A stretch of DNA of 18,399 nt from an uncultured archaeon. Lineage in GTDB: Archaea > Asgardarchaeota > Lokiarchaeia > Sigyniarchaeales > SOKP01. The position numbers and the translations under genes were made by a program. The notes beneath the pieces are model-generated. The model saw nothing but the letters and a program-made list of their open reading frames with translations. It made no database searches and was not told the DNA's origin. This document shows, piece after piece, positions 3,677-8,952 of the stretch (the first letter of the stretch is position 1; the number at the start of each line of letters is the position of its first letter). The stretch is from positions 1 to 18,399 of the forward strand of contig CAYUTF010000065.1 of assembly GCA_964447495.1 (NCBI GenBank), given 5' to 3'.

Positions 3677-4048
3677 TTGTCTGAAAATATTAGCGAGCTC
3701 ACTGATTTGCTGAGAAAATTATCCGCTGTAAATTCTGACATAGAAGGCTCCGCAATTGTAAGCGTTCAAGGACTTCCAATATGTTCTGTGTTAAGTAGAG
3801 ATGTAAATGATGGCATCGTTAGCGCAATGAGCGCAGCTATCCAGAGTGTTTCGGAGAGAGCAGTGGAAGAGCTCGACAGGGGCGACCTTAAGAGGATTCT
3901 AATTGAAGGTGTTAATGGTATCATAATCCTCTCAAAAGCGGGAGATAATGCGATTTTATGTACATTATGTAATGCTAATGCCAGTTTAGGGATGGTTTTC
4001 TTAAATATTCAAAGTGTTTCGAACCGAATTGCAGCACTACTAGATTAA
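3677..4048 (+). CDS. Roadblock/LC7 (MglB-like) domain protein
   Basis: 123 aa: DIEGSAIVSVQGLPI, VSAMSAA..SVSERAVEEL.RG.L..ILIEG..G.IIL...G..AIL..L.....SLG.VF, the classic roadblock pattern. TTG start. Confidence 0.95.
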   Translation: MSENISELTDLLRKLSAVNSDIEGSAIVSVQGLPICSVLSRDVNDGIVSAMSAAIQSVSERAVEELDRGDLKRILIEGVNGIIILSKAGDNAILCTLCNANASLGMVFLNIQSVSNRIAALLD

Positions 4049-4081: not shown

Positions 4082-5437
4082 ATGCCTTATGATTATAATT
4101 TTGAAGAAGATTTTTATAAGAAATTATCTCGTTCACTAAGAGAGAAAGATTTTAGAGAATTTGGAAATCTTACAAAAAGCCAAAATTTAAAGAATGAACT
4201 TTTTAATCCTTTAAAAATAGAAGATAGATTTGAAATATTATCAACTCTATTAATGGATACAATAAGAGATGTAAGTGAGGGATATGAAACATCTGCCCTT
4301 GGAGATTTTATTGAAATATTACGTTTTTTTAATGATTATAATCTTATGGAAAGACAGTTAGAAGAAGAAGATTATATCTTATTAGAGGATTTTAAAAATG
4401 ATAAAATTTTTATTTCAAATTTATGCGACTTATTCGGAAAAATCTCAAACTCATTCATTTTTTATATAATCAAGGATATTCCCCACCATTTTTACAATTT
4501 ATTTATCAACAATCCTAATCCTTATTTTACTGATTCAGAGATCTTGATCTACTATATTAAAAATGTATTTTTCAATCAATATACCATATATGGTTTAAGT
4601 GTACGATATTTGGGACCCATTGAGAAGTTTTTAGGAGAATTAAGAAAAAAAATTGATGATTGTAATACCCAAAACATTCAAGAAGATTTCATCGAACTAG
4701 ATATTAAATATGAACTTCCCGAATTTTATAATAATTATGGTGTGCCACAAAAGCGAGTTATCATTAAAAGGCATTTAGTTTCCCCAAAAAATGTATTAGG
4801 TTATAATAATAGATTTTTTCAAGAGAAGAGATATAGAATGTATAGATTTTACAATCTTTCGATGGTTCTTTTGGGGGGATTAGGTCCTCAAGGGCAAGGA
4901 TTCAGTTATTCAACTCCGAGAGGTGAAGTCATTGAGATATGTTCAGATATTAAAGAAAATGAGGCAATAATAGTCAAATATAGGCTTTTCTTAAAGGAAC
5001 AGTTTATAACTAGATTAGAGAAAGAATTAATATATATAGATTCCCAATTAAAAAATAATATTATAAATTTCCTCAATAGGGTAATAACTCCAGAAGAGTT
5101 AATTGGATACAATAAAATTGATTTCTTATTGAATCAAATTAAGAATTTCTTAATTAATCTTGATGATTTAAGAGAGTTAAATAATTTTAACATTAATGAA
5201 TTAATTGATAAAATATCATCTGCGATCTCCATAATTCTTAGACCTATTAACATGGTTGACCAATTTAAAGCGAGGATGGATTTAGTTTCAAAAGAACAAT
5301 TAAAATCTGAAGATATAGCCAAATTAACTAGTCTTAAAAATAAATCTCATTATGATGTCTTAAGAGAAAGACTTTTTTTTCAATATATTGTTGATTTCTT
5401 TTACGAAATTTATAAAAAAAATAAAGGAATAAAATAA
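4082..5437 (+). CDS. Hypothetical soluble protein (451 aa)
   Basis: Long uninterrupted ORF in AT-rich DNA, mostly helical-looking, with one Gly-rich block (LLGGLGPQGQGFSYSTPRGEVIEICSD). No family recognised. Confidence 0.8.
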   Translation: MPYDYNFEEDFYKKLSRSLREKDFREFGNLTKSQNLKNELFNPLKIEDRFEILSTLLMDTIRDVSEGYETSALGDFIEILRFFNDYNLMERQLEEEDYILLEDFKNDKIFISNLCDLFGKISNSFIFYIIKDIPHHFYNLFINNPNPYFTDSEILIYYIKNVFFNQYTIYGLSVRYLGPIEKFLGELRKKIDDCNTQNIQEDFIELDIKYELPEFYNNYGVPQKRVIIKRHLVSPKNVLGYNNRFFQEKRYRMYRFYNLSMVLLGGLGPQGQGFSYSTPRGEVIEICSDIKENEAIIVKYRLFLKEQFITRLEKELIYIDSQLKNNIINFLNRVITPEELIGYNKIDFLLNQIKNFLINLDDLRELNNFNINELIDKISSAISIILRPINMVDQFKARMDLVSKEQLKSEDIAKLTSLKNKSHYDVLRERLFFQYIVDFFYEIYKKNKGIK

Positions 5438-6594: not shown

Positions 6595-6769
6595 AAACGC
6601 AATCAAAGATAAGCTATAATCTGTTTTTAACACTTTATAATATAATTTATTTTATACTATTTTATTTAATTTAATAAATAATTAGTTAAGAAAAAAGTAA
6701 TCTATTCGAAATTTTAAGGACAATCTTGGAAAGATCTTTACTATTTAAGCATGATTCTATTAAACAATT

Positions 6770-8245
6770 TTAATGCCGAATTTCTTGAATGTAATCAAAA
6801 ATGATATCAACACGATTTTTAATGCTTCCAAATAACCCTTCTTCTTCTGAAACTACCGAGTTTATTGCGGTTTTTAATCCATAGTGACCTTCAGAGATCA
6901 AAACCCTTACCGGTAATGTTAGAATCTCACCCATTAGCATTAATAATTCTTGGATGATTCTAATAATTTTTGGAAAATTCTCTTCAGTTTTATCCATAAC
7001 TGACTGTTCAGAAGATATTAGCCCATCTTCACGTTCCCGTCTTAATTCTTCCCAAACATTTTCTTTTAATTCTGAAAAATTAATTCCTAAATTTTCTAAA
7101 GCTAATTGAGCACCTTCAAAGAAATAGTTAATATCATCTTTCCCATTAAATTTCTTTACATTCTCAACCATTTCTACTGGCGCTAACCCATCAAGAAAAC
7201 TAATGAGTAATTGATGATAGTCATTAATAACATCAATAGGGATAAATAATAAACTAAATTCTCTAACTTGTCGGAAAATATAACCAGCTACTTTGGAAAA
7301 AGTTTCATTTGTGAGTATCTTCTCAACAAAACCTCCATATTCATTAAAGAGATGTACAGCAAGAAACCCAATGATTCTGATCATATCATCTTCATAATTT
7401 TTAAAATAATCAAAAAAGTGCTCTGGTTCCATATTCAATTTATCTTGGATAATTTCCCGAACTTTATTCTTGATTCCCTCCAAGGGTTCATCTAGCAATT
7501 CTTCAATTTTATCTAAAGATAATACATCTTGCAGTTTATCTATTATATCCATTTTGGTTTCTTGGATAATTTCTTCTTCTAAACTTTCTTCAAATTTGAC
7601 ATCTGATTTTAACTTTTCTTTAAGCTTAATTTCGGAAAGTTTTTTCCATTCAATTGCATCATAGATTTTACATTTAAATTGAAGACATTCTTCCCCTCGT
7701 GCCATACATCTTTGTTCAATAATATTTATCCTATAATCATTTCTTTTTATCTTTAAAATAAAATTTGCCACACTTTCAAGCATACCAGTTAATCCAGATG
7801 CTAAACCCTCAACTTCCTCAGCTTTAACTTTTGCAAAATCAAAATTGTCAGCATTATCCAAACCATAACTCGCACAAACAGGACATGTCTTAATACGAAT
7901 AATATAATCACTATATTTTGTTCCTTCGTTAGGAATTTCTTCATATGTCAAATCCCCCTCAGCAATTTCTTTTCCAAACACAACAACCCATAGAAGCTCA
8001 AAATAATCTAGTACTTTTTTCGGATTGCCTGGCATGAACTTAAATACTGCTGAATGGCGCTCGCAAGATTCATAAGCGGCTCTTTTTCCAATTTCTTTAA
8101 GAATTAAAATGCTATCTTCTTCATTTTCAGTTATTTCATTTACTTCTTTTAAAATTTCCCTATAAAGGAGCGTGTAGAATAAAGAATTAGTACTTCGACC
8201 AAAGACCTTAGTGATTTTTTTCAATAACCATTGAACTGCTCCCAT
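6770..8245 (-). CDS. TRAPP Bet3-like/V4R-fold domain (aa ~18-195) fused to a ~290-aa acidic helical C-terminal region
   Basis: NSLFYTLLYREILKEVNEITENEEDSILILKEIG, LWVVVFGKE, CPVC, GLTGMLE and EQRCMARGEECLQF (V4R E..C.A.G...C.F motif). Confidence 0.75.
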   Translation of the reverse strand: MGAVQWLLKKITKVFGRSTNSLFYTLLYREILKEVNEITENEEDSILILKEIGKRAAYESCERHSAVFKFMPGNPKKVLDYFELLWVVVFGKEIAEGDLTYEEIPNEGTKYSDYIIRIKTCPVCASYGLDNADNFDFAKVKAEEVEGLASGLTGMLESVANFILKIKRNDYRINIIEQRCMARGEECLQFKCKIYDAIEWKKLSEIKLKEKLKSDVKFEESLEEEIIQETKMDIIDKLQDVLSLDKIEELLDEPLEGIKNKVREIIQDKLNMEPEHFFDYFKNYEDDMIRIIGFLAVHLFNEYGGFVEKILTNETFSKVAGYIFRQVREFSLLFIPIDVINDYHQLLISFLDGLAPVEMVENVKKFNGKDDINYFFEGAQLALENLGINFSELKENVWEELRREREDGLISSEQSVMDKTEENFPKIIRIIQELLMLMGEILTLPVRVLISEGHYGLKTAINSVVSEEEGLFGSIKNRVDIIFDYIQEIRH

Positions 8246-8247
8246 AC

Positions 8248-8751
8248 TTAATCCCCTCCTATTTTATATTTGTGTATACAGATTTTATTACCAAGGGATC
8301 GTGATTCTGAAACCTCAAGTGGCTGTAGAGAGAATTTAGGGCTTTCTTTCGATTCTTTATTTATGAGAGAGACAAATTCTGCCATCATTGAAATAATTAT
8401 CTCACACCCTGCCTCATTAATATCCTCGAAATGGTATTTACATAAAGCACAATCATTATCTTTGACTATGATGCTATTCTCTAAGTTATCAAGCTCTATA
8501 GAAACACTGCTATTAAAAATATTCTTGTAAAATGTAGCTATAACATCTTTAACATTGTCTAAATTTACTGAATCTATTGGCTTCCAATAATTAGTATAAG
8601 TTTGAGCAATATTTCTACCCATTCTTCTTAATCTTTCTCTGATATCTGTAATTCCATTAAGTTTCATGAAGCGCTCTAGATGATAAATCGCATTCCGTAG
8701 TTGATTGCAAGGTGATTCAGATTGAACTAATTCTTCTCGTGTATAATTCAT
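8248..8751 (-). CDS. Single-domain TRAPP Bet3-like/V4R-fold protein
   Basis: LRRMGRNIA, FYKNIFN, IIVKDNDCALCKY, GCEIIISMMAEFV and ESRSLGNKICIHKY follow the Bet3/V4R order of elements. ATG at 8751, alternative TTG at 8760. Confidence 0.7.
   Translation of the reverse strand: MNYTREELVQSESPCNQLRNAIYHLERFMKLNGITDIRERLRRMGRNIAQTYTNYWKPIDSVNLDNVKDVIATFYKNIFNSSVSIELDNLENSIIVKDNDCALCKYHFEDINEAGCEIIISMMAEFVSLINKESKESPKFSLQPLEVSESRSLGNKICIHKYKIGGD
8255..8260 (-). promoter_or_regulatory. Shine-Dalgarno AGGAGG inside the last codons of the upstream gene (translational coupling)
   Basis: The minus strand reads AGGAGGGGAT-TAA-GT-ATG; stop and next start are 2 nt apart. Confidence 0.7.
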
Positions 8752-8952
8752 TATTAACAACTTTCAAATTATCTTAAAATTAAATAATAAATGAAAATTT
8801 GATTGCTTTTTTAATATTTTCAATTCGAGGAGTATATTATTAGTATGTTTTCATGGAAAAATTTAGTAGTTTAATGTATAAAAAGTCTTTTTTTCAAGTC
8901 AAAAACAGCAGAAAATAGAGTATTGAAAATATAAAAGAAAAGAAAAAATGGA

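Follow-up and report, generated by a model that had tools for sequence, protein, structure and literature searches.

The core of the eukaryotic TRAPP complex is built by pairing unlike Bet3-fold paralogues. TRAPP also contains longin subunits (Bet5/Trs23 and Trs20) and acts as an exchange factor on a Rab GTPase. In Asgard archaea, TRAPPC3-like proteins have so far been described as homodimers only, at least in the available portions of Tran et al. (2024, PMC10933270). According to these portions, Thor-TRAPPC3 (PDB 7YH2 and 7YH3) was crystallised as a homodimer and binds zinc through four cysteines, its relatives from MK-D1 and Heimdall were predicted to be homodimers, and eukaryotic Bet3 is without the zinc site, which has been lost. 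The authors of the Thor-TRAPPC3 structures also proposed ligand binding, and many small GTPases and longin proteins were described in Asgard genomes (PMC10933270). In this study, a stretch of 18,399 nucleotides (the window) from an uncultured archaeon of the class Lokiarchaeia (order Sigyniarchaeales) was analysed. The window has a G+C content of 29.5% and belongs to contig CAYUTF010000065.1 (C65) of assembly GCA_964447495.1, which is 3.81 Mb long and 98.4% complete. It contains a small gene and a large gene in tandem, here called S and L, which are predicted to encode two unlike Bet3-type proteins that probably pair with each other. No report of a heteromeric Asgard Bet3-like pair was found in full-text literature searches.

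Both genes are on the minus strand of the window. S was listed as an open reading frame (ORF) at 8248..8760 starting from TTG, and it was taken as a protein of 167 amino acids starting from the ATG at 8751 (8248-8751), because its relatives share the start MNYTRE.... L (6770-8245) encodes 491 amino acids. The original prediction, made from the letters of the window alone, described two co-oriented genes 2 nt apart with an embedded AGGAGG, and this arrangement was recovered. The stop codon of S (TAA) is at 8248-8250 and the start codon of L (ATG) is at 8243-8245, which leaves 2 nt between them. The AGGAGG, a Shine-Dalgarno-like site for L (8255-8260, minus strand), overlaps the final codons of S and is 9 nt away from the start of L. 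The codons of a conserved Gly-Gly near the C-terminus of S (8251-8262, minus strand) contain the GGAGG ribosome-binding site of L and may be under a double constraint, from the protein and from this site. Among 80 loci fetched around S relatives, the spacing from the S stop to the L start was 2 nt in 59, 1 nt in 10, -1 nt in 10 and -22 nt in one. In 56 of these loci GGAGG occurs no further than 22 nt ahead of the start of L, and 16 more have GGAG or GAGG there, giving a Shine-Dalgarno-like site in 72 of 80. S and L are a translationally coupled two-gene operon.

L has three parts. The N-terminal Bet3-like domain (residues 1-205; 7631..8245, minus strand) carries the CPVC motif at residues 121-124, Cys180 and Cys192. 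It is followed by a charged linker (residues 206-235; 7541..7630, minus strand), which was delimited by the ends of the alignments and by composition, and whose length and sequence vary among relatives. The remainder is an all-helical acidic domain (residues 236-491; 6773..7540, minus strand) without a match to a known family. The motifs quoted in the original prediction were all found in the two proteins: NSLFYTLLYREILKEVNEITENEEDSILILKEIG at L 20-53, LWVVVFGKE at L 85-93, LRRMGRNIA at S 41-49, CPVC in L, and CALC at S 101-104.

The structural model of S is confident, with a predicted local distance difference test score (pLDDT) of 87.2. A Foldseek search with this model placed Thor-TRAPPC3 first (7yh3, E 1.1e-6), followed by Bet3/TRAPPC3 from Naegleria, mouse, human, fly and yeast. 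With the L model, 7yh2_A and the fly TRAPP core chains were on top. In VIA structural searches (over 48,161 chains for S), the best eukaryotic match of both proteins was the Bet3 chain 2cfh_A, and the structural alignment put residues 20..199 of L on residues 15..172 of Bet3. The V4R sensor domains (PoxR 5FRU, DmpR 6IY8, MJ1460 2OSO) scored lower against S and L than TRAPPC3/Bet3 did; the gap was 4-6 Z units with S and about 3 with L. By both searches, S and L are nearer to TRAPPC3/Bet3 than to V4R sensors, which agrees with the affinity proposed in the original prediction. The models thus assign the two-layer alpha/beta fold of Bet3 (TRAPPC3) to both S and the L N-domain.

The sequence evidence is more uneven. 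The profile of S reached Thor-TRAPPC3 at E 1.6e-5, and a class-wide S profile reached it at E 2.6e-7. The Pfam TRAPP family (PF04051) matched 14 of 40 S relatives weakly (best E 0.012) and none of 40 L relatives, and a search of the window's genome with it gave no match. When S and the L N-domain were compared with hhalign, broad alignments gave a probability of 67% (E 5.1e-5, 105 columns, in register) and narrow alignments only 1.9%. On this basis the two are old, deeply diverged paralogues, barely recognisable as such by sequence. Most S relatives (34 of 40, among them P0027, P0031 and P0033) also match the Pfam family SecA_SW on their N-terminal helices. In three relatives examined, all matches were under the cut-off of 26.7 bits (best 25.7), and we treated this identity as spurious. 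These matches are probably the reason why two records are named 'preprotein translocase subunit SecA' at the source.

Complex prediction was carried out for one pair, S with residues 1-215 of L, in three runs and with three controls. The interaction prediction score from aligned errors (ipSAE) was 0.89 (0.88, 0.90 and 0.89 in the runs), and the best of the three controls scored 0.00. The score mark used was reached by 116 of 157 solved complexes and by 2 of 215 mismatched pairs, a calibration that holds only roughly because the alignments for the complex were unpaired. The contact agreement was at least 91% and the partner pLDDT at least 87. In the predicted interface, L 15-38 and 48-63 meet S 1-56, together with loops near both CxxC motifs, so that the contact is made by the N-terminal helices, as in Bet3-type dimers. 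Conservation is somewhat higher at the interface than elsewhere (0.81 vs 0.68 in S; 0.85 vs 0.78 in the L N-domain). The data indicate that S probably pairs with L through the N-terminal helices as a Bet3-type heterodimer. The heterodimer put forward in the original prediction is thereby well supported in silico and by conservation.

At E <= 1e-3, 276 relatives of S were found among 299 candidates and 291 relatives of L among 7999 scored candidates. The 120 S relatives listed share 55-100% identity with S, and the 120 L relatives listed share 68-100% identity with L and are 479-500 amino acids long. With so many relatives, S and L are real genes and not chance ORFs. The records of the named relatives are Promethearchaeota or Lokiarchaeota metagenome-assembled genomes (MAGs), with a few under other Asgard labels. 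When the L profile was run against 1.84 billion representative proteins, only 62 clusters were matched at E <= 1e-3. Judged from these sequences, L belongs to a small family that is not connected with any large known one.

The pairing of the two genes is conserved. L directly follows S on the same strand in all 80 loci fetched (the copy of L is whole in 72 and truncated by a contig end in 8), and the two genes are also adjacent in 9 of 9 loci fetched from families f3-f7. A distribution survey covered 400 genomes of the phylum, with 160 other genomes of the window's class and 239 outside it. Within the class, L was found in 149 and S in 148 of the 160 genomes. In the rest of the phylum, L was found in none of the 239 genomes and S in one, with a marginal match (E 9.4e-4). 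The family f1 genomes without an S or L match are 61-94% complete. These surveys place both families in one Asgard class and show the conserved pairing throughout it, as the original prediction had anticipated for relatives. No paralogue of S, the L N-domain or the L C-domain was found in the window's genome by hmmsearch with the three profiles, the next best match lying above E 0.02. A candidate third Bet3-like gene downstream of the pair in one locus (L098) was rejected. One contig with an S-L pair (L044) bears the title of a Nanopelagicaceae bacterium MAG, but is probably archaeal and was binned wrongly.

Cysteines of the zinc-binding type are a further feature of the pair. Across the class, Cys101, Cys104 and Cys158 of S are invariant and Cys116 is nearly so. 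C101, C104 and C116 align with cysteines of Thor-TRAPPC3. In this respect S, with its putative four-cysteine site, differs from eukaryotic Bet3, for which no zinc site is reported (PMC10933270). In the L N-domain of families f5-f7, C121, C124, C150 and C180 are kept.

The C-terminal domain makes up about 60% of L. It has 256 residues, an isoelectric point of 4.6 and no cysteine. Its mean column identity is 79%, the same as that of the L N-domain. The model shows helices only, with low confidence. No Pfam family was found in this domain in L itself or in 40 relatives, a Protein Atlas search with L 215-491 gave no usable match, and a VIA search with the L model gave, for the C-domain, only generic helical-hairpin matches to residues 415-491, where the model is weak. 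PDB profiles of the BART/ARL2BP type (3doe_B, 2k9a_A) matched about 103 residues weakly (E 0.058-0.11). Pfam BART (PF11527) was found in none of the 40 L relatives at E <= 1 and nowhere in the window's genome at E <= 10, which leaves the BART/ARL2BP likeness as a tentative lead.

Outside L, the C-domain has a second context. In f5-f7, three deeper families of the class, the gene after S encodes the Bet3-like part alone (190-195 amino acids) in 6 of 6 loci. In Helarchaeota (NCBI naming), the C-domain is the C-terminal half of HAD-family hydrolases of about 535-555 amino acids (P0292, P0299, P0301 and P0303-P0305); the comparison of this half with the L C-domain by hhalign gave 97.8% probability (E 7.4e-13, 197 columns). 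In two loci (L095 1-1218, plus strand; L097 5161-6825, minus strand), a gene for such a fusion immediately precedes S and the short L, upstream of them and in their orientation. Among five genomes of the f5-f7 type that were searched, three had a C-domain match, two of them beside the pair and one, a weak match, elsewhere. Because the C-domain is fused to L in one lineage and is a neighbour of the pair, on the HAD hydrolase, in another, these contexts suggest that it works together with the dimer. Thus, L is a Bet3-like protein, as first described, over residues 1-205, and its residues 236-491 are a distinct domain. This is a new conserved domain in two fusion contexts, and it makes a HAD phosphatase a candidate enzyme partner.

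The S-L pair differs from the described systems in several ways. Thor-TRAPPC3 is a homodimer recognised by Pfam TRAPP (PMC10933270), whereas S and L are two unlike partners, one below the Pfam cut-off and one without a Pfam TRAPP match, and L has an extra domain of 256 residues. MKD1-TRAPPC3 (WP_147663132.1) is a Lokiarchaeial protein that was found through its four cysteines and has a predicted TRAPPC3 fold (Tran et al. 2024). It is described as a homodimer, and no partner gene or C-terminal domain is mentioned in the available portions of that paper. MKD1-TRAPPC3 may be an orthologue of S or of the L N-domain. In the eukaryotic heterodimers Bet3-Trs33 (TPC6) and Bet3-Trs31, Bet3 is joined to a subunit, Trs33 or Trs31, that has no counterpart in S or L.

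The Pfam TRAPP genes of the phylum belong largely to another class. They were found in 89 of the 400 genomes, with scores over the cut-off in 82, and the window's class accounts for almost none of these (1 of its 160 genomes). In most of the TRAPP-positive genomes there are two matches, which share a strand and are separated by about 2.9 kb. In the two loci analysed, the Pfam-positive ORFs (L106 1604-2110 and 4545-5018; L107 1317-1838 and 4364-4840) are each preceded by an ORF of 293-335 amino acids with a weak winged-helix match, and in L107 a V4R ORF and a helix-turn-helix regulator come next. These Thor-type genes thus have winged-helix and V4R neighbours, unlike the S-L context, and from their setting Thor-type TRAPPC3 might have a role in sensing or regulation. 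The two Thor-type paralogues share 28% identity and match each other at E 3e-33. One-to-one orthology of S and the L N-domain with them was rejected; the four cross comparisons gave 67-81% probability without discrimination. By sequence comparison, separate duplications of Bet3-like genes seem to have taken place in at least two Asgard classes, and the one in Loki looks lineage-specific. With a separate duplication, the Loki pair would not be the shared ancestor of the eukaryotic heterodimers.

Starting from the genes, folds, conservation and coupling that were observed, and from the heterodimer that was predicted, we infer the remaining parts of a mechanism, namely zinc, a ligand pocket and a role for the C-domain. 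S and L would assemble 1:1, both N-terminal helices of each packing together. A cysteine-bound zinc would brace S, and less certainly L, as in the Thorarchaeota TRAPPC3. The dimer would serve as a scaffold that may hold a hydrophobic ligand in a pocket. Its output or adaptor module would be the acidic helical C-domain of L. In the deeper families this module is not part of L, and in some it is carried by a HAD phosphatase encoded beside the pair. We believe that this reading, a coupled operon for a zinc-braced Bet3-type S-L heterodimer scaffold with the C-domain as output or adaptor, is fairly likely to be right.

Several observations weigh against it. The L model is poor overall (pLDDT 60.6); the N-terminal part is mostly at 70-87 with dips to 61-69, the C-domain is mostly below 65, and from residue 201 on the values are 33-69. 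Pfam TRAPP gave 15.7 bits (E 0.013) for S, under the cut-off of 27, and no match for L. The top match of the L N-domain profile was the same Thor-TRAPPC3 chain as for S, but at E 0.38, which is not significant, and the HMMER profiles of the L N-domain reached no TRAPP chain significantly. The alignment of the L N-terminus to Bet3 that had been read by eye fits the structural register given above and has no significant counterpart in the profiles. The complex score, roughly calibrated as it is, may come partly from the predictor's familiarity with solved Bet3 dimers and with Thor-TRAPPC3 as a homodimer. The HAD fusion is beside the pair in just 2 of the 6 loci of families f5-f7.

The cysteines of L belong to the same side of the balance. 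Residue 150 of L is Ser in the window and Cys in most relatives. In two loci of family f3 (L100 2967-3602, minus strand; L101 2580-3194, plus strand), L is without Cys121, Cys124, Cys150 and Cys180, and S keeps its four cysteines. In this they resemble eukaryotic Bet3, which according to Tran et al. has lost its zinc site. The V4R-type cysteines attributed to both proteins in the original prediction are therefore constant or nearly so in S, and the set varies in L. Because the S cysteines are constant and the L set varies, zinc binding judged from the residues is likely for S and uncertain for L.

A possible but distinctly less probable explanation is that the pair senses small molecules in the way of V4R proteins: a sensor in which the subunits bind a hydrophobic ligand and the C-domain signals to an enzyme or regulator, with no role in membrane traffic. 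It is compatible with the heterodimer and overlaps with the scaffold reading. A putative shared cysteine-zinc brace, the ligand binding proposed by the authors of Thor-TRAPPC3 (PMC10933270), the placement of the other class's TRAPP-domain genes among winged-helix and V4R genes, and the C-domain fused to a HAD phosphatase beside the pair in two loci all speak for such a sensor. However, Pfam V4R (PF02830) matched none of the 40 S relatives and a single one of the 40 L relatives (E 0.13), and, unlike V4R sensors, S and L have no attached AAA+ or DNA-binding output. Ordinary V4R ORFs are found elsewhere in the window's genome: three, two of them over the cut-off, on contigs C195, C95 and C87 (L110-L112), unlinked to the pair. 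No regulator gene is present near the pair within the window. The C-domain is acidic, and a relation to the winged-helix ORFs of L106 was rejected on comparison.

It is unlikely that S and L each homodimerise without binding each other, the operon reflecting a shared pathway alone. Precedent favours this, since Thor-TRAPPC3 was crystallised as a homodimer and the MK-D1 and Heimdall relatives were predicted as homodimers (PMC10933270). Against the precedent, S and L co-occur and are coupled class-wide with the 2 nt spacing, the heterodimer score is high where the controls score zero, and conservation in each of the two proteins is higher at the predicted interface than elsewhere.

The genes around the pair were also considered. 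An AT-rich, TATA-like stretch (8780..8793, minus strand) 29-42 nt before the S start codon may be an archaeal promoter, and a run of six T on the coding strand (6691..6696, minus strand), about 75 nt past the L stop, may be an archaeal terminator; both are candidates read from the letters alone. Upstream of S are a thioredoxin gene, then genes for a ferredoxin-like protein, triosephosphate isomerase and leucyl-tRNA synthetase. Downstream of L are two membrane ORFs. A Roadblock/LC7 gene (3677-4048, plus strand; Pfam E 7.9e-16) is on the strand opposite to the pair, 2.7 kb off, and 33 nt after it comes an ORF of 451 amino acids (4082-5437, plus strand) without a Pfam or PDB match. Over the 80 loci, the thioredoxin gene recurs in 72, the ferredoxin-like (Fer4) gene in 69, the triosephosphate isomerase gene in 62 and the Roadblock gene in 44; relatives of the Roadblock gene (44 loci) and of the 451-amino-acid ORF (39 loci) are found no more than about 6.5 kb from the pair. 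Because the whole region is syntenic, these neighbours carry little functional weight.

We consider it improbable that S-L is a proto-TRAPP core that flanks longin proteins and offers a Rab- or Arf-like GTPase an exchange-factor platform, in the manner of Bet3-Trs33 and Bet3-Trs31: Bet3 is the best eukaryotic structural match of S and L, the predicted dimer contact is of the Bet3 type, a Roadblock/LC7 gene is nearby in the window and in 44 of 80 loci, and small GTPases and longin proteins are plentiful in Asgard genomes (PMC10933270), but the operon, unlike the eukaryotic TRAPP core, has no linked longin or GTPase gene, Sybindin gave just two sub-threshold matches on other contigs (C56 and C132) and Sedlin none in this genome, the Roadblock gene is on the other strand of a region that is syntenic as a whole, both families are limited to one class, neither protein has a one-to-one match to Trs31 or Trs33, and the weak ARL2BP/BART likeness of the C-domain has no Pfam backing. 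The proto-TRAPP label of the original prediction went beyond the evidence, given families of one class, no specific eukaryotic partner subunit, a separate duplication elsewhere and no linked longin or GTPase gene.

The scaffold reading of the S-L heterodimer can be carried one step further. It is conceivable, at long odds, that Lokiarchaeia run an obligate heteromeric Bet3-type core in which the L C-domain recruits a GTPase or a membrane-modifying enzyme. If this were true, a prokaryote would possess a functioning equivalent of the TRAPP core that had evolved independently, and Bet3 heteromers equipped with adaptor domains would have arisen in Asgard archaea before, or in parallel to, eukaryotes. 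Because the eukaryotic TRAPP core is built by the pairing of unlike paralogues, a conserved, coupled pair of this kind in cultivable Lokiarchaeia would give a direct experimental handle on the origin of such assemblies.

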